64,000 nt of DNA from Paraspadella gotoi (taxonomy: Eukaryota; Animalia; Chaetognatha): positions 11,080,883 through 11,144,882 of the forward strand of contig CM119269.1 in the NCBI GenBank assembly GCA_051294375.1, given 5' to 3'. Every line of letters starts with the position of its first letter. Position 1 is the stretch's first letter. Shown here in pieces: positions 377 through 60,023 of the stretch. Below the pieces are notes generated by a model. It made no database searches and was not told the origin of the DNA. It was given only the letters and a program-made list of their open reading frames with translations. Made by a program: the position numbers and the translations under genes.

Positions 377-13325
<12,949 letters not shown>

Positions 13326-13452: not shown

Positions 13453-14237
13453 CAAAAGCAAAAATTTTTGTAATGCGTATGGCTTCGTTCCGACGGATAG
13501 ATAGGTGGGCCCTTTTGCTTTCAACGACGGTATTCGAAGGTTGCGTGTTTTGGAAGTTTCATGATTGTCTTCATTATACGTCTAAAAGCTCTCTCTCTCT
13601 CTCTCTCTCTCTCTCATCTCTCTCTCTATCTCTTTCTCCTCCTTCCTCCCTCCTCAACCTGTCTCTGCAGTTTTCGCTCCACGTCTTCTTTCTTGTCCTT
13701 TTCGTATTCATTTTGAATCGTCTCCAAAACAAACAAAACAAGAGAACGGGCGAATCGCCAATTGTGACACCGTATTCTCTGGTGCCAGCCCTTTTTTCGT
13801 TGGGCAAACCTCTACTCATTAACCCATTTTTTCAGTCGGTCTGGCTCTCCTTCCAGCAGATCTCGCAAGTCTTTTTCAAAACTGAAGGGTTTGATGATAA
13901 ATAGATTAAGGAAATATAAAAATTATCCATTCATTTAATAAATAAGCTATCTTGCCCCTGACTTTGAACAGGCTTTGGTGGTTTAAGGCCTCCATCACTC
14001 TTACAAGATAATGACATAGCAGGTCCCTGAATTAAAATTAGAAATAGATTGGGATTTGTGCTGAGGTTAGTGGCGATTGAGGATAATATTTTCTTTACAA
14101 CTGAGAAAGGATTTCGAGGAAGAGTTTTTGGTAGTGAAATTAAGAAAAAGGTTTTGGTGAGAGAAATCCCGAGGAAGGTGGATGAGTTTTTGTTATATTG
14201 TATTCGGGCATTGCAATATATTCACCATTGAATAGTA

Positions 14238-14830: not shown

Positions 14831-17800
14831 ATGAGCGCCGCTCGTTCGTTTCTTAATCCTAACGACGACATTCGCGATCGGACGGTGACGCCCGCGTCAG
14901 GTGCCCCTGATGTCGATGCCGACGAGGAAAGAGAAGCTACGTATACCGTTAGTCGCGAAGTTTTGCAGTGAGTCGCTCATCGTTTTTAAAATAAAATATT
15001 ATGGCAACGGGAGGATTGCCTGTGATACCCGGGGCGCGGGCTATCTCACCAAATGGCGTAGGGACATGCTTGTATAGCAGAATATTTCAAATGAGTTCTT
15101 CAATCTCATTTACATATTGTAGCAGTTTAGATAATTTCTCACAACTTTTGATATAAGATGCCCCCATTATGCATGAATTTGACGCATCGATTAATTATAT
15201 AACTGGCTAATCGACGACCATGAAGACCATCTGTTTACGATCTTTGACCAATGATCATTAATTGCCAAGGTTAGAATCTGCGAACCTTTCGACAAACGAA
15301 TTGCCAGGACTTTCCCTCCTCGACGGCTCTGCGGTTCAGGTGTGAAGATGATGATCCCATTTTGATTTTTGAAAATTTTTATTTTATTTTAAATAGTATG
15401 GCAACAGCCGGGTTGCCTGTGATGCCCATTGGGATGGGGCATCTTACTTTTGACTTTGGGGGCTTCCGACCCTCAGTGACGCCTCCTGTCACTGGCGCCC
15501 CTGCTTTGGAGAATAATCTTCTTCGTTTCATCTTTCATAAGAATCATAGTAGCGAACATAGCTATATAACATAACCTAGCTATTTCGTATTTACATGCAT
15601 TTTTTTCTTTTCAAATAGAGAAAAAACTTTCACGACGTGTTTAAGAAAATTTTGAAGAGACAGTAATTATTGATATGTGTTAGTGACAGAACCGTTCAAT
15701 ATAAGCAGTCCCTGAGCTTCGGATCAGGCTGTAACACCATGTTACAGGCGGGTTAAGCGCCCCGTCCCTCTTAACTGCTAGGCGGCCACCGGGCTAGAAC
15801 CCCGGACCTTTTGGGTTGGGAGGCGAATGACTTGCCTCCGGCTGCTGATGAACGGTTGGTGGATTTTAGTCCACCATAATTTATTATTTACAATTTCATA
15901 GAAAGACGAACAAAGACTAATTTTAACCGATTGTTTTAAGGATATCACTCTAAATCTCCCCACGCTGGAATTCGCAAGCGCGCTCAAAGATCAGGATCCA
16001 ATTTTCACAAAACTGCGTGCCCGATCTCACGCTCTCACATTCGCCGCTTGCGCTAACTGGTAAGTAAAAAAAAATATTTATTTTAATCTACGGAGATTTT
16101 ATATTCGCCAAGTAAACCGTAAATCGTAAATCCTGCAAAATGAAAAAAAAAAATTATGCTTGTTATATAAATTTTTAATACGTTCTATACTATGACATGT
16201 TTTTAAGTTATATCCGCACTCATAAAACGTTAAGCTCAATATTTATTGAAATTAGAGGACATTTTTCATTCGCACTTGACGATGTGCTTGATTCTCTCCA
16301 AGACTTCATCCCTCAACTTCTCAAAGTCGTCGACGTCGAACTTTTGCTCCTCCCGATTCTGTGCGATCATCAACAGATTCTCTTCCATCTTATCGTTGTC
16401 CTTCACGCCCGATTTCACGCCGACGCTTAAGATCTTGACGCCCAACTCGGTGGTATCGTTGACGGCGTCGGAGGCGTCCTTCCGAAACTCTTCGGTCAGC
16501 TGCCCGCCGGTAATGACGAAGACAATCTTGGCCGCCTCGCGTCGTGGATATTTCCGTATCATCTCCACCGCCGCCCGCAACGCCGCCGGGGTGTTTGTCT
16601 CTGGTCCGATGGTCTCGTCAGCCTTGATGTGGACGCCCATCTCGGCGCACTTGTCATCGGTGGCGTTGACGCCGCCGATCCACTGCATCCCTTTGACGGT
16701 TTGAATCAAGCCTGGCCTGCCTATCTCGGCGGAATCAGCTAGGGAAATGCTTTGTCCATAATCGACGGCGGAGGCAAAAGTTAGCAACCCGATCCGCACG
16801 ATGCCAGATCCCTCGTCGAGATAGTCGACAATGTCGACCACGAGGTCGAGTTCTCGCTCGAAGCGCTCGGACGAGTTCAGGCAGGACTCCATATCAGTAT
16901 CATTTTCAGCCAGGTTCATGCTGCCGTCGATGAGGAATACGACGTCGAGAGGCGCCGATTTCCTGGAACAGGTTCGCTCGCAGCGCCGTCCGCGAAACTC
17001 CGCGGCGCAGGTGCATCGGAAGTCGCTTGGGTCTTGGGGCAAAATCTCGCAGGCGGCTCCGTTAAGACAGGGGTTGGGCCGACATGGATCAATGATGAAT
17101 TCACAATCTGTTCCATTGTATCCTGGTTGACATTTGCAAAGGTATCCTGCACCGTCATTATCGCAAGTGCCATTATTTTTGCAGGGGTTGCTAAGTGTGC
17201 AAGGTCTGACATCATTTTCACAATTTATGCCATCGTAGCCTGTTTCACATATGCATTTATAATTGGTTCCTTCATTTTTACAGGAACCATTGTTTTGACA
17301 AGGTTTGTCAATTGTACAAGGTCGGACATCATTTTCGCAATCTGTGCCATTGTAACCTGGTTCACATGCGCACTTATAACCGTCTTCAATATTTTCACAG
17401 GTGCCATTGTTTTGACAAGGATTATTAACTGTGCAAGATATGATTTCATTTTCACAGTTAGTTCCTTTGTAACCCGGTTCACATATGCACTTATAACTGT
17501 CTTCAAAATTTTCACAGGTGCCATTATTTTGACATGGTTCCGTAATATTGCATGGTGCAATATTCTTTTCACAATGCGTCCCATTGTAGCCTGGCTGACA
17601 AACACATTTATAACTGACTTCATCAACTTTGCAAATACCACTGTTTTTACAAGGGTTACCCTTCGTACAGGGTCTTATATCATTTTCACAAGCTGTGCCG
17701 TTGTAACCCCTATTGACAAAGGCAAATATAACTACCTCCATCTTGAACACATGTACCATTGTTTTTACAAAGGTTATCTTTTGTACATAATGTTAATCGG

Positions 17801-20800
17801 TTTTCACAGTGAGTGCCATTATATCCAAGTTGACAATCACATTTAAAATTGTCGCCGTCATTCACACAAATACCTTCATTTTGACAAGGATTGCTTAAGG
17901 TACAGGGTCTAATATCAGTTTGACAGTTGGTGCCATTGTATCCAGGTTCACACACGCATGCATAATTGATTCCTTCATTAGTGCAAGTGCCATTGTTTCG
18001 ACAAGGATTACCAACTGAGCAGGGTCTAATGTCTAGCTCACAATTTGTACCATTGTACCCTAGTTGACATATACATTTATAATTAGATCCTTCTTCTTTA
18101 CAAGTTCCATTATTTTTACATGGATTACCTGTCACACAAAGCCTGATATCGATTTCACAGTCTTTTCCAACATAACCTTGTTCACAAATGCATTCATATT
18201 TAGAACCGTTATTCTCGCAAGTACCATTGTTTTGACATGGGTTTTCAATTGAGCAAGGTCTTAAATCAATCTCACAATGTTTTCCGTCATAACCAGGCCT
18301 ACAAACGCATTCATATTCTGTTCCATTGTCCTGACATGTACTATTGTGCAGACACGGATTTCTATGACTGCATGGTAATAAATCAATATTACAATCATTT
18401 CCTTCGTATCCCGATTTGCAATCACATTCATATCCACCTCCAAAGTGTCTGCAAAGTACCATTATTCTTGCAAGGATTCCCAATGGTGCAGGGTCGTAAA
18501 TCTGTCTCACAATTTCTTCCAATGAAACCAGATAAACACCTGCATGTGTAATTTGTACCATGATTTTCACAAGTACTATTATGCTGGCAAAGATTTTCAA
18601 TATTGCATGGTCTTATATCAATATTACAATCATTTCCTTCGTATCCCGATTTGCAATCACATTCATATCCACCTCCAAAAGGTGTCTGCAAAGTACCATT
18701 ATTCTTGCAAGGATTCCCAATGGTGCAGGGTCGTAAATCTGTTTCGCAATTTTTTCCAAAGAAACCAGGTCGACAACTGCATGTATAATTTGTTCCATCG
18801 TTTTCACACGTGCCATTGTGCTGACAGGGATTTTTTAGACTACATGGTCTAATATCAGTACCGCAGTCATTACCTTTATATCCTGGTTTGCAATCACATT
18901 CATATCCTGTTCCAAAGTGATTGCATGTCCCATTATTCTTGCAAGGGTTTCCAACTGAGCAAGGGCGTGTATCAGACTCACAGCGTTTACCGACGAATCC
19001 AGGTAAACAATTGCATATATAATTTGTTCCATTGTTCTGACAAGTGCCATTATTGTTACAAGGATTAGTCATCGTGCATGGCTTCATGACTTTATCACAA
19101 TCTTTACCACCATATCCACGTTGGCAGTGGCATTGGTAACCTGCACCACGAGGTTCGCATGTTCCATTGTTCTGGCAGGGATTTTCCAGTGCGCAGGGCC
19201 CATGATCGATCTCGCAATTTCGCCCTGCAAACCCAGGTTGACAATGGCATTCGTATGACTGCTTGCTCTTGCGACAGCTGCCCCCGTTTCGGCAGGGCCT
19301 CGTCCGACAAAGATCTTTGCATCCGGCACCCCGCTTGCAACGCCCGCAGTCTTGTCCAGTGTATTCCACCGGGCACCGGCAATAGTATCTGGTACCTTCG
19401 TTGTAGCAGAGTGCTCCGTTGCGGCAGGGATTGGAGTCGCAAGGACGCGCGTGGGTATACCGCTCGCAGGTCACCCCGCAAAATCCCTCTGGGCATTCGC
19501 AGTAGAACTCGGCGCCTTCCTCGTGGCACGTGGCGCCATTTCGACAAGGCGCGGAGTCACAATGTCGGCGCCGCTTTTCGCAGGTGGAACCGCAATGAGT
19601 TGGCGGACACTCGCACCGAAAACCGATTTCCGCAGCAAGGTCATCGAGACACGTGGCGCCATTGGCGCAAGGGCCCGAGGAGCATGGCGGCGCTTTGGCG
19701 ACCGATGCGCCACTGGCGGACGCGATAAAAAGCAAGAGAAGGTAAATGAAACACATGCTTGAAATTCTTTAGCGTATTAGGCAAAAAAAAACTGTAAATC
19801 TCAGGCATTAGCTATGGCCGGCGCTCACGGTTATCGACCACCGGATTCTTGTTGAAACCACTCCCAACAGTATTTAAAGGCTCATATCGGCGTCGACGAC
19901 GACGACGGCAACGACGACGTCCCCTCATTATTTAAATTTCGGCGTCTTTTCTCTTTTTCTCATTCGAATTCGAATGATTGAGTGACGCATCCTCTCATCA
20001 AAATAAGACAAATAATTGAAAAGAAAGGAATGAATGGAAAAGAAAAGGACGAAAAAGAAAAGCAATTAATGTCCATACGTCAAAAGAGTCAAGTGTGAAA
20101 CAATCGGTTGACGAGCAAATCTCAATTCGAGTGCCCTCATTTTGGACCAATTGTAAAAAGTAAAACTAAATACGGCAAAACCTTTCGATTTTTATTCACG
20201 TTAAATCTCGTTAATTTTTGTACTAACTCTGCATAATGCGTATTTTATGTATTCTGAATGATCTATCCAAAAAACGCTTGTGTAAAATTCCGGCACTTTG
20301 ATATATTAGATTTCCAATAGCTAACGATCGTGCCTAGGGTTCCAATAACCGTTAATTTTTGAAAAATTTAGCTTAACCGTTAAAATCGGTTAATTTTATA
20401 ATTTTACTTTAAATTTAAAATATTATTATTTAAATCAAACTAAAGTATTTAATGGTATTTTATCTTTTAACTCTTGCTCCTGTATCTTTTTTATCTTCTA
20501 TTTCAGATAGATAGGTACACATTTTAGTTAGTAAATTAAAAATTGATTTGAGCAAACTATTTTGAATCCACCTATGATAATTTAGCTAATCAGATAATGC
20601 ATCGTGATAAATCTTATTTACAAAACTTTTTCTTTACCTCATAGCATAATAAAAATATATAAAAGGATAAAGAAAGAAAAACCACTAGGTAATTCTAATT
20701 CTATGTTTTGTCTTTTTTTTCTCTCTCTTTCTCTTTTTCTTTTGTTATATCTCTTCATTATTTTTCTTGATGTTAGTTTCGTGAACGCTTGTTTTCTGTT

Positions 20801-22136
20801 TTTATTTTTTCATAAGCCATAAGGAGAATAAGAGAGGACAAGAAAAAATTACTTTTCTTTTAAAAAATCAAAGATTTTATACCAAAAATAAAAAAAATCA
20901 TATTTAAAAATTAACCGAATTTAACCGTTAAAATAAATATATTAACGGTTAGGTTAAAATTATTTTTAACCGTTAACTGTTAACGGTTATCGTAACCCTA
21001 ATCGTGCCCTTTAACAGGGAAGTTGTACTCTCGTGTTTGTTCTTTTATTGATTTTCTGTCCATATTTTCCTCCAGCGCTTTTTTCGTGGGCGTCATCAAC
21101 GAAGCTCGGAGGTTTTTGGGAGAATTGAGCGACACTAAAAAGGTCGGTCGTTGACCTTTACAATCCGTTAAAGGTCCATTTAACATCGAAGAAAGCCAGT
21201 TTATTTTTGCGCGTACCTAATATTTAATATTGAAAAGATACTATATTTTGACAACTCGCTTTCAAGTACAATGTAATAAGTACTATGTAATGTATGTATG
21301 TATGTATGTACTAAGTTCCCCTTTATTTCCGACACCTCAGATCATAGAGGCGGGGCGTCGTCGGGATTGGCGCCACCCATTTCCGGTCAGCGTTATCGGT
21401 TGCGGGCGCTTGGGCCGCCAGATCGTCGATGCTTTGATTACTTACGCCGGTAATTTCAAACAAAGTAGGGATTAAAACGTTATTTAATACCAAAAAAATG
21501 TCAATTAATGCATTTAACAATCAATACTTGTAAAGGAAACTTGGGGAAAAAAAAAAGACTTTGGTTGGTAAATTAAAGCGATCCCTCGACAGGCTTGATG
21601 TCTTAATGATTAATAATCCTTCTCGTACGTAATTACTGCCTCAGGAGTGGAAACTTCTGAGTTTTACATCTCAAGTCGGAGACCGGAGATTTTAGCAAAG
21701 TACAAAGACCTGGGGATCCAGTGTTTCTTCGACAACAAAAAGGTAGAGCGAAGGCGACGCTTGTTCTGCCGCCGGTCGATATCATTAAAATCGTTGTCCC
21801 AATTTTAGTATTCAGTTTCTGACAGCGTGCGGCTTTTGCCTTTTAATCGCTGTCATAAAAATAAATAGTTCTGTGCATTTATATTTTCCGACGCGGGTTG
21901 CGTCTGGTATATTCTAAGCTCATTGCCTCGTTTTAGTGGGAAAAAAGAAATAAAAAATATTGTATTAATGAATGATCGCGTCGACCTCAGCTTTTTTACG
22001 ACTTCTTCCAAGGGGAAAGCTATTTTTAGATGCGATGTCGCGAAACGAAAAATAACCCAGTATAACCCAGTATATTCATATTCAGTAACCCAGTATATTC
22101 ATACCGACTCGCATCCATCATCTTTCAGCGAATCCC

Positions 22137-22200
<64 letters not shown>

Positions 22201-23272
22201 ATTATTATTAGTATTATTATTAGTATTATTATTATTATTTATTCTTCTTCTTCTTCTTCTTCTTCTTCTTCTTCTTCTTCTTCTTCTTCTTCTTCTTCTT
22301 CTTCTTCTTCTTTTGTCTTCGTTATCGTCAACATTTAATATTTTCCGCTAGGCGGCGGCGTCGGCGCGAATTCTTTTTGTCTGCGTTCCCCCGACCGACG
22401 TCGAATCCGTTGCCAACGAAGTGAAAAACGAGCTGAAATCCAGCTGCGTCGTTGTCAGCCTCGTCGCTGCAGTGCCGATCTCCAAACTGAGGCTGCTGCT
22501 GGCCGGACACCAGGCGAGTCTTTAACCGCGACTTAAGGTCAGCTTTGACGCTAATTGATCTATGGGAGTTGGGAGTAATGCGAGTTTTTTGTTGATGTTG
22601 TTTTTTTGTGGAAACAGAATATAATCAAGATGGAATTTTACTGGGAAGAACGGAACGAAATGCGAGAGTGGGACATTTCAAAAGACGTCATCTCATCGCT
22701 TCAGGTTATTCTAGATGGTCTAACATCATGGTCATCAAGAACTGCATCATCATCACTGTCATCAGAATTTAAAACATCATCATCATCACGATCATCAGCG
22801 CTGTCATCGTTTTGGTAATCGCCGAATGAATACTGTCTATGTTAATTACTATGTTAATTACTAAGCTATATTAATTGAATCGACAGAGATAACAAAAGCG
22901 TGAGGTGTGGCAGCAAGACTTAAAGCTGCCTCACTGCTGTCCGTCCTCAGCCTCGTCTCAATGGCTGAGCAGGCTAAATCATCTCATTCCATCCGTGCGT
23001 CCCGGGTTCAATCCCCGGGTATCCCGGTTCTGGCTTAAATGTGACGGTGCCGGTATAAACATGCCAGTGACAGGAGGCGGTCACTGAGGGTCCGCAGCCC
23101 CTACGCCAGTTGGTGAGATACCCCGCGCCCCGGGTATCACAGGCTATCCTCCCGTTGCCATAGAGGTTAGATTAATTTCGGAAATTTGATGGAATTCTAT
23201 TTCAGGATTCGTCAAAGTTAGAAAGGGCCTGTCCGCTCACAACGAAGAAACGAGAATCGATTGTGTGTACCA

Positions 23273-28466: not shown

Positions 28467-28732
28467 TATGGCAACAGCCGGGTTGGGGTATCTCACTGTT
28501 GGCTTTTGGGGACTTCCGACCCTCAGTGACGCTCCAGTCAGTGGCGCGGTTACCCTACGACGGTCTCGCTTTGCCAACGCAGAGGGAAGTCGTTAGGACT
28601 GTGAATGGAACACAACGCCTGGGATTGACTAAACGATGATGGACGTGAGGCGGTATGAATATACCGCCACAGGATCCCCGGGCCATCACTCAGGTTCTCC
28701 AGGTCTGAGAGGTGTCTGACAAGACTGCTACC
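28467..28732 (-). mobile_element. SINE-like copy carrying twister copy C
   Basis: Same 3' tail (..GGCTGTTGCCATA) as the other copies; a GC-rich 5' extension of ~150 nt without a clear B box. Confidence 0.6.
28499..28577 (-). ncRNA. Twister ribozyme, type-P5 permutation (copy C, partly decayed)
   Basis: Minus strand: UUGGC aaa GCGA GA CCG ucguaggg UAA CCGC GC CACUGAC uggagc GUCACUG AGGG UCGGAAGU CCCC aaaa GCCAA. T1 is CGG/CCG here, compensatory relative to copies A and B. Confidence 0.72.
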
Positions 28733-29607
28733 ATAGGGGTAGGCGCACTCAATGGGGTGAGTAAAAAAATTAGAGCGAGTTCATGCTCAAACGAGAATTT
28801 TTACTTTTTAAGTATACTTTCAATCGTAAAAAGTTGTCTACAAAAAGAATTCTTTTTTAAATATTTTCATGATAAGTGAGTCAAAAATAAGAAAAACCGT
28901 AAAAAATCGTCATTATCATCTTTCGATGATTTTATCAGTTTTTTTATATTTTCATTGTGATTATACCGCCACACTAACTTGTTTTTACTTAACTATGTAT
29001 TATAAATAAAGTTGGTCGTCTTCGCCGTCGTTTTTGTCTTTTGAGTCACTACGGCTTCACAATTTGTCAACGTCAACAGGAGTCGTCTGTAGTTTAGAGA
29101 ATCGTTCGTTCAAAATATGGTTGTAGGAAAGGAAAAAAAAGGAGCGACTAACATCTGCTTTCATAAATTTCATTCTAAGTCGACAAGTGTTGGAGAAAAA
29201 AAAAACAAACTCTAGATTCTCAATGAATTAATCTTGATATAAAAAAAAATTAACAGAAAATAGAAAACTTGTAAACGAAGAGACTTGACGTCGGTCTGTT
29301 GTGCTGGAACAATTGACAATGAGGGGGATAGAGAGTGAGATGTAGAAATGCGAATATTTCGATCGTTGCGGAATTATGTATAACCAAAAAAAAATTCGCA
29401 TGAATGAAAATTAAGTAAAACTTTAATGCCATTAAAAAAAACGTGATTCCGTCTTCGCCTCGGTACAATCTTTTCTTCCCATAGGAATTACGTCTTTCCC
29501 CCCCCCCTTCTTTTCTCGAAGCGTCAAACGAAAAAGTATGCGTCTCTGGGCGTACCCGCTTTTGACTTTCGAACTTATCGTTCACGTATTTTTTGCGCCT
29601 TCTTCTT

Positions 29608-31628
29608 TCATGTAACCGTAACTTGCTTTTTTCCCTCTTCGTCCGTTACATTTTGCTTCGCGCAAAGTGACGTCGTCACTGTCGTCGTCGTCGTCGTCTC
29701 TTCTGCCTCGTTTCTGTTTTTACCGCGTCCGCAACAACAAGATTCTTGTCCCGAGCGCCAAGACCAATCGCCCAATCTCGTCAATTTCTTCGTCTTGGCC
29801 CAATTGCCCTTCCACGTCACCAGCCTGACTAATCTGTCCCTGTACTGCGGTGAAAGAACGAACAAAACGACGAACAAAAGACAACAGTTGAAGTTCGTGA
29901 GGAAAATGGCGGCGCGACGATAGACGTCGAAGACGGGCGACCTCTTCACGACGCCGCTGTGACGCATCAATGACGCGAGGAAATACGGAAGTGACGTCAC
30001 GAGAAACGCCGTCACCACGCTGGCGCAAATCAGCGTCACTTGTCTTTCTGTAGACTTGGCCCAAGAGCGTCGTTCTGGGGCCGTGGTGGCAGAGGCGCCG
30101 GGCGTCGCGAGGACGTCGTCAATACGGCGCCGATTGCCTCTGTCGCCGGGAGAGACGACGGCGTCGCGGGCGGCGCCGCCGGCGACGCTGCTCTTCGCCC
30201 GGAAGGAAGCTTCTTTTCGGATGCAGAGGATTATGCGGATGTTGAAGCAGAAGAGGAGGAGGAGGGGAACGAAGAAGCGCGCCGAATAGGTGAAGGCTAA
30301 TTTGTACGCCCACACGTAGACCGGGTGACGCCGCAGCGCCGTCTTTTGCGTTCCCCAATACGTGACGTTGACGACGACGCCGGCCGAGTCGCGGAGGCAC
30401 GCCGGCATCGGCGCCGCCTCGAACGCGTGCTCGAAAAAACGCGGCACGTTGGCGGCGACGGCGAAGACGATGAGCACCCCGACGACCCCGACCACGTGGC
30501 GGGGAGAGGCGTGGCCGGCGCGGTGACGTAACGGGCGCGAAACGGCGCGCCATCTCTCGAAGCAAAAAGTGGTGAGCACCCACGTGTTCGCCAATTCGTT
30601 CACTTCGCGGAGAAAGTCCTACGCGGAGGGGAGAGGGGTGGAAAAGGGAAGGGCTAAAAGTTAAAAACTCGGAAAAAGAGAAATGAAGTTAATTGGAAAT
30701 GAGAGAAACGAAGTTAATTAGGACAAGAGAGTGACGCGGGGGCGAGAAGAATCAAATAAAACTTCGTTGTTCGTCAAATTCATCAAATTATGAATAACCA
30801 AATTATAAGGATAACTTTGCATAATTTTATGTAAATCTTCCCCCCATAATCCTCGTCACCTCAATCCCCTTTCGCCCACTCATTACTCCTCATTACTCCT
30901 CATTACTCCTCATAACTCATTACTCCTCATCAACGGCGCAGGAATTTTGGAGAGGAGAAACAAGATTTTCTAAAATTCACTTTTCGCTAATGTTATAAAT
31001 TTATAATACGAACTTACGAGGGCAGCATAAACTCACTTAAATTCAAAAAGAGGAAAGACAGAGCGCTCGGGAGATATCTTTCTCCAACACTGACCTGGTA
31101 GATGTGCAGTTCTTTGTGTTGCAACTTCAACGCTATGGAAACGAAAGTAAGATTAAACTCCCACGTGGCCACGAGAAGCCAGATCGTCGAAGTCGTCGTC
31201 AAAGTGATGAGGTAAACAAACGTCGGCGATCGTCGTCGTTCTGATTCAAAAAAATTGAAAACATATGGAGGACGACGATTTCGCACATTTATTATGAAAA
31301 TAATTTTTAAAAATTTTAAGAAGTTTTTGAAATAATTTACGCACTCTCTATTGAGAGAATTAAATTATCTTTCTTTCTGTTTTAAAACTTCTGAGTTAGT
31401 GAGTTTTAAATATCAACAAATATAATCGAATTTAAATTAATTTCGTAGATATCTTTCAGATTATCTTGCGCTTAAAAAAAAAACAACAGAAAACAAACCT
31501 TTTATTAAAACCAGCAGCGCCATCAAGTTTCCGACAATTCCGACGACATTGACGCCAGTTCCGAAAAATCCAAAAAAAATGGCGTCGAAAGACGAAAAAT
31601 CCACATGGAATTCGCAATCGATCGCCAT
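29608..31628 (-). CDS. Rhodopsin-family peptide GPCR (FMRFamide/sex-peptide-receptor-like), 3 exons
   Basis: Exon 1 TM1 GVNVVGIVGNLMALLVL; exon 2 RSPTFVYLITL; exon 3 TWVLTTFCFERWRAVSRP, NVPRFFE, FFVPLLLLFCFN, FLVTSLP, NCCLLFVVLFVLSPQYR. Confidence 0.88.
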
Positions 31629-42898: not shown

Positions 42899-43500
42899 CT
42901 AGCTTTTTTCTTTTTGGAGAATTTTGGAAGGTAGTAGAAGGTTGGTACGAAAAAAAAATTGACTCTCCTCTCTCGAATTAACAGCTAAATTTAATAACAA
43001 GTATTAACTACTAGTATATTGATTGCTGTGGCAGCGTTACAAACGCCGAGACGAAAAAAATGATAACAACAACCACAGCGCAAGAGCGCAAGCCTTAAAC
43101 ACGAACTACTTCGTCATAAACTCCAATTTGAACATCCAGTTTCAAAAATATGCCTTTTTTTCGGGAGGCTGTCTGGCCTCACATATTTCCCGCCTAGACT
43201 TAACAAAAAAAACGTTTTTCTTTTTTCGTTTTTATTTATTCTTCCATTTTTTTGACGTCAAAGTCCAGAGTTTCCTTGAAATGATTTCTTTTGATCCGTA
43301 GGATATTTCAGTGAGTTCCGTTGCCAATGGAAACGCTATTTCGTAGAGACAAATTTAAATATGTTAAATATTATTAAGGGCTTCAAATCCTGGTGAAGTT
43401 AGCTCAATGATGAGTGCAATGGAGAAAGAACAATCTCTGCAAATTTCGCCACCTATATTATGGTTGTACCAATTTCATAAGATTTAGCAAATTATATTTG

Positions 43501-43931
43501 ATGAAATTGGTACAACCAATATAAAAATTATCCATTCATTTAATTAATAAGCTATCTTGCCCCTGACTTTGGACAGGCTTTGGTGGTTTAAGGATACTAG
43601 TGATATTAGTGCGGAGTACAATATGGTATACACCGATCTATTTGTATAGTTGTATTTGCATAGTTCGTCTGGAAAGCTTACATTAAGGAAGTGGTCTTAT
43701 CATACAATTGAAACATTCTTTGAAATATTATACCACTTCATTGATAGGGAAGCAAGGTACTCTGGCGAGACTGTGAGAGAGTCTTGATAGAAAGCTTGCA
43801 GGGTCCTGCTAAGTTAATATCTTGTAAGATAAATGGATTCCGTAAACCACCATAGCCTGTTCAAATTCAAGGGCATGATAGCTTATTTATGGATTGAATG
43901 TATAATTTCATATAAGTTGTACCAATTTCAT
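43501..43931. mobile_element. MITE with ~95-bp TIRs; abundant dispersed family
   Basis: ATGAAATTGGTACAACCAATATAAAAATTATCCATTCA...GCTATCTTGCCCCTGACTTTGGACAGG with an inverted copy at 43840-43931. Related pieces at ~268-345, 6130-6245, 13914-14030 and 59670-59882. Confidence 0.8.
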
Positions 43932-44103
43932 AAAATCGCCCTGAATAATGAAGATGAAAGACCACGAGGTCGTGATCGAGTTCCGCTTTAACCAAAACAG
44001 CGGAAAAAAAAAGTGTTTTTTCTCCTTAACGGAAATCCACCTCTTCTTTCTCCCTCCTCTTGTTATTCTTTCATTCCCAGCTCATAAATTGTGAAGGAAA
44101 GCT

Positions 44104-52599: not shown

Positions 52600-53056
52600 T
52601 AAATGTTTCCAACAAAGAATTAAAAAAATGACAGTGGTCAGCTTTGAGGATAAGGAAAGTTTGAGCAGAGAGAAAGAAGGTGGTGAGGAAAAGAAATTGA
52701 AATTTGGCAGAGAAAAGAAAGATGAATAATGTATAAGATGTATAAGATGTATAATGTATTGATCTAATTGTTGACCTCTGCATCTCTCTCTCTCTCTGCC
52801 AAATTTTAATTTCTTTTCCTCACCACCTTCTCTCTCTCTCTGCTCTCAACTTACCCTATCCTCAAAACTGACCACTGTCCTTTTTTTATTTCTTTGTTAA
52901 AAACATTTATTTCTCTCTCTTCTCTCTCTCTTTCCCTCCATATCCTTCTCACTGTTTACTTGTGAAACAAAAAATTATGTATTATCAAAATTAAATAAGC
53001 ACTGATGAAGATTTGCAAATTAAGTCGAAATATGTATGTTTAATCATAATAAAAGT
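52452..53056. mobile_element. Inverted pair of Penelope-like pseudo-LTRs
   Basis: ~52452-52715 is the reverse complement of ~52790-53056; each arm ends in a hammerhead motif. Confidence 0.7.
52997..53041 (+). ncRNA. Minimal type I hammerhead ribozyme
   Basis: AAGCA CUGAUGA A GAUUU gcaaauu AAGUC GAAA UAUG UA/UGUUU. Stem I and stem II pair; stem III is very short; GUA cut site after 53036. A mutated inverted copy lies at ~52468-52512. Confidence 0.75.
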
Positions 53057-54092
53057 CGTTGTTGTTAAAGAAATTCTTTTTCTCTCCAAATCTTAAAAAA
53101 CACAACGAAAGAAAGAAACAACACAATATTTGAAAATTATATCCATAGGATATTTACTTTCTATATTGAGCTCGAATTTTTTAATTTAATCAGCTTGGGA
53201 GGTATTGAGTAATCATATCATATTCTGCAAATAATTCTAGTAAGCTTTGCCATTTTTAAAATAGATACAAAATATTTTTGGGCGACTTGAGTCTTGGCTA
53301 CATTGTTACATCATCTTTGATCGAGGTTTTAATCTTGTCAATCATATCAGGATACAACTGAATTACGTACATTGCAAATCTCTTTAAATGTATGCATCCT
53401 CATTGTTTATTATAAATTTTTTTACTATCTGTTAATAATGAATTAATTATTATATCAATGAATTTAATAATAATTTATAATAATAATATAATAATTTTTA
53501 AATAATTTTATTGCTTCTGGTTCTGGTAGTAGCCAAGTAGATTACAGACTTAATGCCATGCTACTATTGATAATCATATTTCATACCATCTGGGAAAAGT
53601 ATTTTTGGGCTTAAAATATAGTAATAACAAATTGAAATTTAGTTGATAACGAAATTAAAACAATAAAAGAAAATATATTGTTTATTTATCTTTAAAAATA
53701 AATATGAGCAAAATATTTGATTCACAAATTGCCTATATTAATTAAGAAAAATCATTTCTTTACCTAGGCAATTCAGAAAACCTTTGCTCAGTTAATCAGG
53801 CAAATATTACCTAAGTTCACCCCATAGATTGCGGTCAGCAGTTCACCATTCATTCTCGCTTTTTCTTTTTTTCCACTTTTCTTGTATGAATACAAGGGCG
53901 CGAACCGCAAGTCCTTCAGATGGGGAGGAGTTCGCACTACCCGTACGGGCGCCATAGGTACTTACTTATTAAGTAAGAGTAGAAGGGCTGTTGAGGCTTT
54001 TCTCTCTCTGATTCCAGCGGCTGGTCAGGCTTCTCTCTATCTCTCTTTTAATTATATGTCGCTCTCCTCTTTCTCTTTTTTTTTTCTTTCTG

Positions 54093-54482
54093 AATAGGGG
54101 AAGCCCCTCTCAATGGGTGAATCAAAAATTTAGTATGGGAAACATGGCTCAAACGAAAATTTATGCATTTTAAGTATAATTTCAATGTACAAAAAATTTC
54201 TTATATGGCTCTAATAACCCACAAATTTATTTTTTAAATATTTATTTATAGAAAGGAAAAGAGTTTGGCCCTACTCAGATTCGTCGAAAAAACGAGTTCA
54301 GCTCTGCAGCAGCGGTCCAGCAGCTGTCCAGCTTCTCTCTATCTCTCTCTCTCTCTCACTCTTTCTCTCTCTCTCTCACTCTGATTATTTTTTCTTCTGA
54401 ATAGGGGAAGCCCCTCTCAAAGGGGTGAGCCAAAAATTTAGTTTGGGAACATGCTCAAACGAAAATTTATACATTTTTAATT
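54093..54482. repeat. ~310-bp dispersed/tandem repeat, interrupted by the Penelope-like insertion
   Basis: ATAGGGGAAGCCCCTCTCAA..CATGCTCAAACGAAAATTT at 54093 and 54401, resuming at ~56913-57120; related pieces at 28733-28835 and 51720-51770. Confidence 0.75.
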
Positions 54483-54660
54483 GTGGTATAATCCTTTCTT
54501 TCGTTGTGTAATAATTATTAGAAAAGTTTGGAATGAATTTCAACAACGATTTTTTTTAGTAAAAAACGGAACATGTTTCGGCTTAAACTACAGCCTTCAT
54601 CAGCATTAAAAAAGTAGTGAATTTGAAACAAATTCTGTGCATAAAAAAGAGTGAGAGGAG

Positions 54661-54695
<35 letters not shown>

Positions 54696-56912
54696 AGAGG
54701 GCAAAGTTTCCAACCACGAAGTCTGAGAAGGTGGATGTGGTCAATTGTGAGGACAGATTTAAGGTGAAACAAATAGAGCCAGTTTGTGAAGAAGAAATTG
54801 AAAATGGTTGGAGAGGAGAGAGAGAGAAGGAATCGAGAGAGAGAGTGAGAGAAACTTGAAAATCAAATACATGTGTGGCAATGTACAACAAAGATGATAA
54901 ATTGTCATTGTTTAAACTTAATGATCAGTGTTAAACAATTAGCTACTGTGAATAAATAAGTTAGTGAAGATGAAATTGTGAGGCATCAGTGGACAATGTG
55001 AGAGAAGCAGGAGAATGGGTCAATTCCAATGCTCGAGTGTGCTTATGAAAGCGTAAAGAGGGCGGCTCATTGGACAATTTTCAGTATATCGCAAACCGAC
55101 GCACACAGATCAGTACTTCCCTTTGACGTCTCATGGCGCCTTTTATCTCACAAGCTCGCCACGGGTCCGGTTCCTTAACCAGAAAGGGCGCATTGTTCCG
55201 TCGCCCCGAGCCGTTCATGAGCCTTGCCGGAGCTTGAGAGCACGTCAAAAGAGTTCCTTGGGCCGAGATCAGCAGTGGTTCCTTCATTGCTGGGCTGTTC
55301 CGAGGCTAGGTACCCCGGGCCGTTCTGTTCGTATGGGCAGACTGAACGACCACGACGTCCGGGTTGGTCCAAATGCTTTGCCTCGCTGAGTATGGCCTCG
55401 AGTGAATGTTTCTCGCGCTCCATCCCCAGGGAGGGCAAAAGGGAGCTTGCTGCTGAAGAGCCTAACCAGCGCCACCACGCGCAAATGGAACTAGAGCAGA
55501 AGCGGCCCTAAAGAACCGTGGGACCACTTAGTCTCCCCTACCACCAGGGGATCACTGAGTCATTGGTGGGCGCGGTGGCTGGCAAAGCAGGGGATCTACC
55601 TCAGTGACGGCCGCGGTCTATAGCGTGAGCTATTGGTGAAACCGAAAGATAAAATCCCCAGACCGAAAACATCAGGAGGCCCGTCTATTGGGCGGCCTGT
55701 GCAGGGGCGGGCAACCAGGCCTGTACAGCGCATACGTGGCGAGACAGGCAAATCTCTGACGGATCGATTTCAGCAGCACGACGAAACCAATATCGTGATG
55801 CCCGCGGTCATTACTTGTCAGCTGTAGCCGAGCATACCGGTAAATACCTGGCCAATGTATTCTAGAGAAAAGACTGTCTCGTGCTGTCCGCATGACCCGA
55901 ACTGGTTTCAAAGAGGTATTCGAGCGAGGAAATACTCAAAGCCTCTGAGCCTCTTGATCGTGATGGAGGACGATTCGACTCCCTCCAAGCTATGATTCGC
56001 TTATCAAGCGTGGTAGGAGGCCCCGTCTCACAACGTCCGCACAATGATCCCCTGTCTCCACTCAACGGACAGGCAGGAATCCCTTGCGCAGGCAAATGGC
56101 AGACATGCGTTCCTTCACCTGTAGCAACTCATTCCCTTTTCTCGTGTGAGTGAGCGCGCCCAAAAGCGACGGCTGCAGGAGGAAGGAGAGTCCACCACTC
56201 TGTCGCAAGGCGGCAAGAATGGAAAGCCGCCACCTCGTCGCAGGCGCAGAGAGAGGCAGTCGGCAGGCGTACCAGGGCCAGAGAGACATCAGAGTAGCCT
56301 TGGGTATCTTCCGCAAGGAAGCTCCCTAACGCCGCACACATACGGCTCAACATTTTGTCCTCACAGCACTGACACGTCAATGACGCCGAACCACATCGAT
56401 CAGGCCTTTCATTTGCACAACAAAGGGGGCCAGCTCACTTTGAGCTCTTATCTTCAACTCTTATTACTTCACTATAATAATAATTGCTTAAGTATCCTCA
56501 CCTCTACTTTCCTTCACAAATTTCCAAATTTCACAATTTCATCTCACTAAACTTATTTATTCCAGCAGTAGTTAATTGTTAACAACTGATCAATTAAGTT
56601 TTTAACAATATTTATCTTGTTGTACATTGCACAATGTTATTATTTTTTTAAGTTCTCACTCTCTCATCTCTCCTTCTCTCTCTCTCTCTCTCACCATTTA
56701 TTTCTTTTCCACAATGGCTCTATTTGTTTCAGCTGAATCTGTCTCACAATTGACCACTATCCCTTCTCAACTCTGTGTTGGAAACTTTGCCCTCTCTCTC
56801 TCTCTCTCACTCTTCTCTCTCTCTACTCTCTTCTTATCACATATTTTTTATTCTCTTTGTTAATGGCTGAGAAGCTTGATAAGGCGGGACATGCCGTTTT
56901 TAACTAAAAATA
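54483..56912 (+). mobile_element. Decayed, 5'-truncated Penelope-like retroelement with inverted terminal repeat
   Basis: Frameshifted remnants VYRKPTHTDQY (55085), LPYHQGITESL, LVKPKDKI and GIY-YIG-like GETGKSLTDRFQQH. ~54560-54985 is an inverted copy of ~56530-56900; ~40 bp of target sequence is repeated on both sides. Confidence 0.85.
54565..54607 (-). ncRNA. Minimal hammerhead ribozyme in the Penelope-like terminal repeat
   Basis: Minus strand AAUG CUGAUGA A GGCU guaguuua AGCC GAAA CAUG UU CCGUU with palindromic stem III; an eroded copy lies on + at ~56862-56898. Confidence 0.65.
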
Positions 56913-57229
56913 AGTTGGGAACATGCCTCAAAACGAAAAACTTTATAACATTTTTAATTATACTTTCAATGTACAAAAAATTTCTCTAAATGACTCTATA
57001 CCCAAGTATATTAATTTTTAAATATCTATTTATAGAAGGAAAGGAGTTCAACTATTCAGATTCGTCTAAAAACGATTCAGCTCTGAAGCGGCTGCCAGCG
57101 GCTGTCCAGCTTCTTCCTCTCTCTCTCTGTGCGCTCTCTCTGTGTCTCTTCTCTTTGTCTCTCTCTCTTGTCTCTCTCTCTCTGTCTCTCTCTCGTCTCT
57201 CTCTGTACGATCTCTTGCGTGATCGTGCG

Positions 57230-59363: not shown

Positions 59364-60023
59364 AAGAGCGAGAGAGAGATAAATGATAAATGATACAACA
59401 ACGGACCTGAGCTCGCTATTAAGCGGCTTATAGAGTCTTTCTTTAACGTAAAAACAAAATTTAAAATCGTATGTACTTGGTAATGTTCCTTTAAAACATT
59501 TGAACCTTTTGATCCCGAACTCCACAAGACACAACGAAACGCGAGAGAGAGAGAGAGATGTAGAACCGTATATATCACAATTAGCAATGAACATAGACAA
59601 GGAAGTAGCGTAAGAACCAAACGACTAATAAAAAAACAGCGATAAAAAATGATTAAAACATTCTTTGAAATAATATACCACTTCATTGATAGGGAAGCCA
59701 GGTACTCTGGGAGTGAATAAACGAGACTGTGAGAGTCTTGATTGAAAGCAGGGACCTGATATGTCATTATCTTGTAAGAGTGTCGAAGGCCTAAAACCCC
59801 CAAAACCTGTCCAAAGTCAGGGGCAAGATAGCTTATTTATTAAATGAATGGATAATTCTTATATTGGTTTTACCAATTTCATCGGTATATTGATTCTCAT
59901 CAACTTCGTCGTCGCCAAAGCTTAAGTTCAACGATTAAGAAATGGGCCGAGTCCGGGGGTAAGCCGGATGATGGATCACGTGGTACAGTAGGTTACGAAA
60001 ATGAAAGCAAATTCTGTCTGAGA

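Follow-up and report, generated by a model that had tools for sequence, protein, structure and literature searches.

Element A, a short high-copy unit found in the chaetognath Paraspadella gotoi, combines an internal tRNA-like promoter with a type-P5 twister fold and likely represents a solo LTR derived from a miniature retrotransposon of the Helenus type. The twister anatomy is confirmed, at the level of sequence, in A and in two related copies, B and C. We give about even chances to the view that A is a Helenus-like TRIM LTR with a type-P5 twister, acting as an animal Pol III LTR retrozyme that would propagate through a cut and circularised RNA. The window, to which all positions refer, is the whole 64,000-nt stretch of DNA that was analysed. 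An earlier note on it had proposed a mobile family that is non-coding and combines a promoter of the tRNA type with a type-P5 twister fold; the present analysis supports that view.

Ends, target sites and dispersal of element A

The unit and its flanking duplication are as follows.

22906-23162, + strand: element A, complete LTR-like unit of 257 bp, TGTGG...CCATA (ends from contigs)
22902-22905, + strand: target-site duplication GAGG, left copy (from the sequence)
23163-23166, + strand: target-site duplication GAGG, right copy (from the sequence)

Contigs of four sequencing runs (1379, 1660, 713 and 145 contigs) were aligned to positions 22820-23270. Among the alignments listed, 43, 56 and 40 contigs of runs X1, X4 and X5 depart at the left boundary, 22906, and 41, 51 and 37 at the right boundary, 23162, where 10 contigs of run X9 also depart. 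The start of the element, which the earlier note had set at 22950, is thereby moved to 22906. Both ends are fixed in three DNA runs from two studies. Outside 22906-23162 the summed contig depth falls about 1000- to 10000-fold. The summed depth of A is 2,645-14,989 times that of the flank, or 85-484 times after division by 31 for contig overlap, and is not a copy number. The firm measure of dispersal is the number of distinct A junctions, at least about 40-70 per run among the alignments listed. In the same alignments, 5' and 3' junctions are about equal in number (47, 64 and 46 vs 54, 73 and 55 in X1, X4 and X5). No head-to-tail joint from 23162 to 22906 is present among the best 15 of 29 joints, and the units are dispersed singly. 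These 15 joints do not include an empty-site joint of A either. Runs X1, X4 and X5 cover the left flank of A; past 23187, the right flank is covered by X1 and X9 alone. The insertion, or the sequence next to it, may be polymorphic. Run X9, possibly an RNA run, covers the flank as DNA would. Departures of X9 contigs at 23056 and 23058 were set aside, being represented by one contig each. In pattern scans of metagenome contigs, the one match (L001) was a chance match in bacterial-looking coding DNA, and viral contigs gave 0 matches.

From the composition of the flanks, the GAGG duplication has a chance of about 0.005. An exact duplication is known from one copy, A, and shifting the boundary by one would bring a fifth base into agreement. 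The consensus of the loose ends reads ATAT directly before 22906 and after 23162 in X1, X4 and X5, with an agreement of only 0.42-0.49. Loose ends in these runs also read TAC after the shared G, giving palindromic 4-bp targets, again at low agreement. An A-rich or simple-repeat 3' tail is absent: four copies in the window stop sharply at GTTGCCATA and are followed by unrelated flanks. The termini of A are TGT...ATA and those of C are the same, while B begins with TATGG. The usual right end of an LTR is CA, from which the ATA of A departs.

Internal tRNA-like promoter and RNA-level helices

Four features of A lie outside the ribozyme.

22962-22973, + strand: A box of the internal tRNA-like promoter (motif scan)
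23002-23018, + strand: T-arm with the B box at 23005-23015 (motif scan)
22909-22930, + strand: 5'-terminal hairpin with compensatory changes across A, B and C (fold z)
23117-23138, + strand: 3' hairpin with one compensatory change in copy D (folding)

The A/B-box pair of A is the only one in the window at no more than one mismatch per box. The boxes read TGGCT...AGG and GGTTC. At 23016 the majority allele, T, preserves the T-arm pair as G-U. The unit is putatively transcribed by Pol III. A run of four T is found neither in A, B and C nor in the candidate internal region described below. At default settings, ARAGORN calls no tRNA; its calls at lowered thresholds were not counted, since it then also labels the twister a tRNA.

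The earlier note had seen two copies behind an A/B-box head. Only A has a good pair of boxes; B has a B box and a cloverleaf with a degenerate A box. The related description of a SINE-like element with a tRNA head is not supported for A, whose A box lies 56 nt inside the fixed 5' end and which has no tail. Given this position of the A box, the 5' end is explained neither by Pol III initiation nor by ribozyme cutting, which counts for an LTR.

The 5' hairpin has fold z values of -2.7, -3.9 and -5.7 in A, B and C, with 6/6, 7/7 and 7/7 Watson-Crick pairs. The nine terminal bases pair 9/9 as RNA in both A and C, counting G-U; as DNA they pair 7/9 in A and 5/9 in C, every extra RNA pair being a G-U. 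A helix around the tRNA part and the twister is retained in A, B and C despite differing sequence. Because the 5' hairpin and the enclosing helix start upstream of the promoter, they could presumably form only in RNA that contains the whole LTR. Such an RNA would be, for example, a 3' LTR transcript or a circle.

Related copies in the window

Besides A, the window contains two related units and several fragments.

15653-15878, - strand: element B, related unit, starting with TATGG at 15878; 3' end uncertain
15781-15845, - strand: tRNA-like cloverleaf of B, with B box and degenerate A box (fold z -2.4)
28467-28671, - strand: element C, decayed sister copy, TGTGG...CCATA
28672-28733, - strand: candidate 62-nt internal region upstream of C, starting with TGGTAGCAG (28733-28725)
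28958-28973, - strand: 15/16 match to the first bases of C, possible 5' LTR remnant, 302 bp upstream of C
15397-15500, - strand: copy D, 5'-truncated C-type unit with P3, P4, the 3' hairpin and the CCATA end
15000-15063, - strand: copy A2, 3'-terminal 64 bp of an A-type unit (95% identity to A), then ATAT
22093-22137, + strand: 5' fragment of a C-type unit (84% over 45 bp)

In B, a 3' end at 15653 would place AAAT on both sides. ARAGORN calls its cloverleaf only at a lowered threshold. C lacks a B box and carries a 21-nt deletion near its 3' end. It also lacks a target duplication, as a 3' LTR should, and this counts for the LTR reading. The candidate internal region upstream of C begins with a 9-nt match to a tRNA-Met primer-binding site. 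TGGTAGCAG is the only such 9-mer in the window, and its chance is about 0.009, allowing for 25 tRNAs and 150 nt. The match ends at 9 nt and the purine tract of the region is weak. A published animal tRNA-Met primer-binding site is TGGTAGCAGAGC, an example that comes from Copia (GalEa) elements (PMC3587641). The 4-mers flanking the possible 5' LTR remnant differ from the 3' flank of C. Together, C, the 62-nt region and the 16-nt remnant suggest a damaged two-LTR copy. No intact two-LTR copy is present in the window or among the best 15 of 29 joints. Copies D and A2 have kept the 3' end and lost the 5' end, as in target-primed insertions.

An AT-rich dispersed repeat family occurs at 28733-28832, 54013-54480, 54641-54981 and 56531-57168. 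Its first copy adjoins the primer-site-like motif and interrupts the region upstream of C. B, D and A2 are located 400-1250 bp downstream of a gene at 16266-19768 (- strand) that encodes many 117-bp tandem EGF repeats and a C-terminal VWA domain. They are on the same strand as this gene and possibly in its 3' UTR.

The type-P5 twister fold

The fold was delineated in the three full copies.

23030-23109, + strand: type-P5 twister fold of A (descriptor, covariation, covariance model)
23030-23034 with 23105-23109, + strand: P5 of A
23039-23042, + strand: P2' of A, followed by G23043
23045-23047, + strand: T1' of A
23048-23055, + strand: P1 segment of A, self-complementary palindrome UGCCGGUA (self-duplex energy)
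23056-23058, + strand: UAA of A, predicted cut 23056/23057
23059-23062, + strand: P2 of A
23063-23064, + strand: T2 of A
23065-23086, + strand: P3 of A
23088-23101, + strand: P4 of A
15704-15779, - strand: type-P5 twister fold of B, with a bulged 3-bp P2, P1 palindrome GGCGCU, G15766 and U15755
28499-28577, - strand: type-P5 twister fold of C, T1 swapped relative to A, G28565 and U28552

The earlier note had described three twister cores at these positions and in this element order, and the sequence check, the descriptor and the shuffles bear it out. P2, P4, P5 and the pseudoknots T1 and T2 are found in P5-open order in A, B and C. The G of the GA motif and the U/A scissile site of UAA, also claimed earlier, are present in 3/3 full copies. 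In A, none of the core bases is listed as variable at 4% or more in the four runs, and self-cleavage is predicted at U23056/A23057. In T1, the middle pair is swapped (G-C/C-G) between copies A and C. For T2, the pairs are G-C or G-U, with A-U in family E (see below). Three corrections apply to the stems given earlier: P2 of B has 3 bp and is bulged, P2 and P3 of C each contain a mismatch, and P1 as a hairpin has at most 2 bp. The folding energies of the cores are ordinary (z -0.4, -1.9 and 0.0 for A, B and C), and the lowest-energy folds of A and C lack some of the twister helices.

A descriptor was written that required P5, P2, GA, a Watson-Crick T1, UAA, T2 and P4 with an 8-nt loop. Over the window it finds exactly A, B and C. 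The same descriptor gave a mean of 0.15 matches in 980 whole-window dinucleotide shuffles, with 1/980 reaching three, and 0/4000 element shuffles for each copy; it was composed after the copies were known, so these figures flatter it. A loose descriptor finds A, B, C and one AT-rich match (mean of 0.6 in 60 shuffles). A covariance model built from A and C alone recovers B at 24 bits (E 1.2e-4, rough calibration) and has no unrelated match up to E 5. The model built from A, B and C matches a fourth, P3-less motif at 13950-14008 (E 0.0012).

Core identity among the copies is about 58-69%. In a plain MAFFT alignment of A and C, 50/52 cells are paired and 5/26 pairs differ on both sides, and 22/500 shuffles are as high. 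The model-fitted alignment of A, B and C, which is biased toward the structure, has 75/77 cells paired and 14/26 pairs changed on both sides. This count was reached in 0/500 shuffles, and at most 2 such changes were seen with the partners slid. Together with the swapped T1 pair, it agrees with the covariation that had been claimed between copies. A plain MAFFT alignment of seven cores misaligned B and E and was unused for pair counts.

Rfam twister models, which the earlier note had named as a check, were searched up to E 10 and matched none of A, B and C. The RF02684 (Twister-P5) consensus lacks P3, which A, B and C carry. The sole Rfam twister match in the window, at 13957-13999 in family E, scores 23.4 bits against a gathering score of 37.6. 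The Rfam hammerhead search gave no match in the window.

The P1 palindrome

Between T1' and UAA, A carries UGCCGGUA, B carries GGCGCU, C carries UCGUAGGG and family E carries AGGCCU. The segment is wholly self-complementary in A, B and E, and at 6/8 positions in C, where two G-G clashes occur. In A and C, a P1 hairpin would consist of at most 2 bp closing a loop of 4 nt, and a second pair in B would leave a 2-nt loop. The segments of A, B and E form no hairpin alone and have self-duplex energies of -8 to -11 kcal/mol (-10.9 kcal/mol for the 8-bp self-duplex of A). A P1 of 6-8 bp is attainable only between two copies. The inner 4 nt are Watson-Crick in 3/4 segments, with a chance of about 0.001-0.004 if independent; the statistic is post hoc, and the twisters of B and E seem related, hence not independent. 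In a model with nested helices only, a strand-swapped dimer of A reaches -56.5 kcal/mol vs -35.6 kcal/mol for two monomers. Minor alleles disrupt the outer P1 pair (23048 T>A, 5-13%; 23055 A>C, 1-6%).

Hammerheads that act as dimers have a weak stem and a palindromic loop, and axolotl hammerheads with a one-pair stem and a palindromic loop cut efficiently only as dimers (PMC7229834, in part). The palindromic P1 of A suggests cutting as a dimer. Twisters without P1 still cut, inefficiently (PMC8501958, in part), so a dimer may not be needed.

Family E and the surroundings of the unit

A further twister-bearing family, E, is represented by at least six copies.

13913-14029, - strand: family E copy
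59652-59883, + strand: family E copy
6127-6248, + strand: family E copy
43496-43594, - strand: family E copy
43653-43934, + strand: family E copy
267-343, + strand: family E copy

The copies are 78-97% alike and have no tRNA part. They carry a P3-less type-P5 twister-like motif with a bulged P2 as in B and the AGGCCU palindrome at P1. T1 is broken in two of the four copies that retain both strands, and in the copy at 267 one P2 pair is exchanged between A-U and C-G. The family has a common 3' end, variable 5' truncation and one inverted adjacent pair. This insertion pattern resembles that of Naiad and other Penelope-like elements. Judging by arrangement only, E is probably the pseudo-LTR of a Penelope/Naiad-like element. 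A search with the decayed reading frame upstream of E found no relative. Family E may be the donor of the unit's ribozyme.

A decayed element at 55050-56400 (+ strand) contains the motifs VYRKPTHTDQY and GETGKSL, which we take to be a Penelope-like RT end and a GIY-YIG-like motif, respectively. Pfam gave no match on this element. A possible decayed minimal hammerhead is located near 56367-56393, and a weak twister-model match (E 0.03) on the opposite strand at 55967-56039. A near-perfect 190-bp inverted repeat at 52657-52853 is probably a MITE-like foldback. Rfam microRNA and snoRNA matches there and elsewhere were rejected as unrelated and below gathering scores. The window also contains an axonemal dynein heavy chain gene (DNAH5/8-like) with many short introns at 940-13230 (+ strand) and an intron-poor gene for a rhodopsin-family GPCR at 29608-30618 (- strand). 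A fragment of the dynein shares no more than 70% identity with named proteins of molluscs, echinoderms and vertebrates, and its best match overall has 78%.

Comparison with known systems

Helenus elements (TRIMp3) are TRIMs with a tRNA-like segment in the LTR (Kojima 2024, PMC10886601, in part). Animal Helenus elements make 4-bp duplications and leave many solo LTRs; their consensus LTRs start with tgt or tat and end with aca, less often ata, tta or tca (same source, in part). The present units resemble them in the short LTR with an internal A/B-box segment, which starts tens of bases from the end, the TGT/TAT...ACA/ATA ends, the non-coding character and the solo LTRs. With respect to the Helenus tRNA motif (A box TRGCY...YGG, B box GGTTC), A fits, B agrees in the B box and the cloverleaf, and C is decayed. 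Termini of the Helenus LTR type are found in A and C (TGT...ATA), and a 4-bp duplication in A (GAGG). The difference is the 80-nt twister that follows the T-arm here, without oligo-T. In the part of PMC10886601 covered, the word 'twister' has 0 occurrences and 'ribozyme' appears only in a reference title. Inspection by eye of the animal Helenus consensus sequences, in the covered part of its supplement, revealed no twister. The same supplement, in part, holds the gall-wasp LTRs Helenus-2_SyJa and Helenus-2_SyUm, in which a hammerhead core is visible by eye just 3' of the tRNA part. This core has a type III layout, with GUC, CUGAUGA, GAAA and complementary loops (by eye). The covered part of PMC10886601 (DataS1) does not mention a hammerhead in these LTRs.

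Plant LTR retrozymes make 4-bp duplications, have a tRNA-Met primer-binding site and solo LTRs, and are modelled with a circular RNA (PMC4918200 and PMC7761336, in part). On the proposed reading, the likeness lies in a non-autonomous LTR element with a ribozyme in each LTR and a tRNA-Met primer-binding site. Plant elements carry a type III hammerhead with about 700 nt between cuts, whereas A has a twister and a predicted circle of about 270-320 nt; they occur mainly in plants with no tRNA-type promoter described, whereas A is an animal unit with a tRNA-like promoter (same sources, in part). According to the part covered of a recent preprint, LTR retrozymes use hammerheads only and are found mainly in plants (bioRxiv 10.64898/2026.07.22.740005).

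As a ribozyme, the fold follows twister type P5 (RF02684) in its element order, GA and UAA, P4 loop and both pseudoknots (class features from PMC8501958, in part). A, B and C differ by the added P3, by a P1 that is a 6-8-nt palindrome and by scores below the Rfam threshold, and are predicted ribozymes. T-variant twisters of Perere-3 (RTE clade) in Schistosoma mansoni likewise have a weak P1 and belong to a retroelement (Liu et al. 2021, PMC8501958, in part). There, a P1-open twister heads a coding LINE at its 5' end, and the cut site marks where the element starts (same source, in part), whereas the predicted cut site of A is 150 nt inside a non-coding unit.

Sm-alpha resembles A in combining a Pol III promoter and a ribozyme in a short animal repeat (PMC6765202, in part). 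Animal non-LTR retrozymes carry type I hammerheads in tandem arrays, without LTR, primer-binding site or 4-bp duplication (PMC6765202 and PMC7229834, in part); A differs, with single dispersed units and no hammerhead. Nor does A have the 5' tRNA head and the tail of tRNA-derived SINEs. The engineered Tornado system yields circular RNA from a Pol III transcript with twisters (bioRxiv 10.1101/2023.07.11.548538, in part).

The components are each known. In the literature searched, twisters are tied only to RTE elements, and the combination was not found in print, in line with the earlier note, which had thought it undescribed. No twister in an LTR, TRIM or tRNA-bearing element was found in the full-text literature searched; earlier examples could be present in Repbase or Dfam, among the roughly 2700 twisters of a published list, in subscription journals or closed bioRxiv supplements, or in an 'in preparation' note on insect type III hammerheads.

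Replication model and alternative explanations

An LTR retrozyme of this kind could replicate as follows, by a route like the one proposed for plant retrozymes (PMC4918200 and PMC7761336, in part). Pol III would initiate near 22953 in the 5' LTR and then read through, because A, B, C and the candidate internal region lack a 4-T run. Cutting at U23056/A23057 in both LTRs would yield a unit-length RNA. The two LTR copies would fold as a strand-swapped dimer, because the palindromic P1 is too short to close well alone; the two-LTR precursor would be cut and a circle with a single twister would be spared. A host ligase, e.g. RtcB, would join the 5'-OH and cyclic-phosphate ends; in the Tornado system, RtcB carries out the ligation. 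tRNA-Met would prime reverse transcription round the circle, restoring the 47 nt upstream of the promoter. A helper LTR retrotransposon would supply the reverse transcription. An integrase would insert the cDNA, in solo, monomer or multimer form, and leave 4-bp duplications.

An LTR is favoured by the ends, by the short duplication of 4 bp, by the palindromic consensus of the targets and by the primer-site-like motif. Against it stand the Copia origin of the primer-site example, whereas animal Helenus elements are tied to Gypsy, the missing duplication of C, the uncertain one of B and the occurrence of GAGG in one copy. The ATA right end, the poor purine tract and the 5' truncation of D and A2 also count against it. 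For the ribozyme part, the adverse points are the blank Rfam result on A, B and C, the P1 clashes of C and the minor alleles that break P1. We hold only tentatively the fuller proposal of a palindromic-P1 twister that acts only as a dimer within a Helenus-type TRIM, is excised as a ligated circle and relies on an LTR helper, with a hammerhead version having arisen separately in gall-wasp Helenus-2.

A Helenus-type LTR could also replicate in the ordinary linear way, its twister being a Pol III 3'-end former or a Penelope-like passenger. This is unlikely, yet a serious contender, since every piece of LTR evidence fits it equally well. The unit has no T4 run, and many published Helenus LTRs have a T-run after the B box (by eye). 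The tRNA-less family E, with its related twister and Penelope-like insertion pattern, could be the donor. However, the ribozyme would be in both LTRs, and a cut in the 5' LTR would presumably lose the strand-transfer repeat. Compensatory changes in P5, P2, P3, P4 and T1 also speak against a dead passenger.

It is rather unlikely that the unit is a Pol III SINE-like element or non-LTR retrozyme, an Sm-alpha with a twister, target-primed by a Penelope-like element or a LINE. D and A2 would fit, being 5'-truncated with exact 3' ends, as would the slight surplus of 3' junctions among the alignments listed. The window holds the decayed Penelope-like element at about 55050-56400, and animal retrozymes are linked to Penelope-like elements (bioRxiv 10.64898/2026.07.22.740005, in part). 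Yet the 5' end of A is fixed 56 nt upstream of the A box, and a tail is missing. The duplication is 4 bp and not long, and the best 15 of 29 joints contain no head-to-tail joint, whereas non-LTR retrozymes are tandem with longer duplications (PMC7229834, in part). The primer-site-like motif beside C is a further objection. Within the window, no 3' end common to a LINE was seen.

That a MITE-like DNA transposon, its inverted ends short and its duplications 4 bp long, captured a tRNA-twister cassette is improbable. This would account for the sharp ends, the short duplication and the imperfect 9-bp terminal inverted repeat. As DNA, however, the ends of both A and C have a mismatch at the second base, and they become complementary only through sense-strand G-U pairs; DNA transposition needs no sustained selection on an RNA fold.

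Chance likeness to a twister in a GC-rich, hairpin-rich repeat has very little probability: the Rfam blank on A, B and C, the ordinary folding energies and the number of full copies examined, three, would suit it, but the descriptor and shuffle controls, the pair counts with slid controls and the detection of B and of an E copy with models built without them speak against it, as does the Rfam Twister-P5 match to that same E copy.

Implications

If the LTR-retrozyme reading is right, A joins tRNA-promoter TRIMs (Helenus) and LTR retrozymes, classes that have been described separately. It would give twisters a second role in eukaryotes, beyond trimming the 5' ends of RTE elements. Rfam misses genomic twisters that have a P3 and a palindromic P1, and their number may be underestimated. 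The twister would possibly be dimer-gated, and could then help to make circular RNAs that resist re-cutting. The A family would, if this is true, be a natural, self-propagating counterpart of the synthetic Tornado system.
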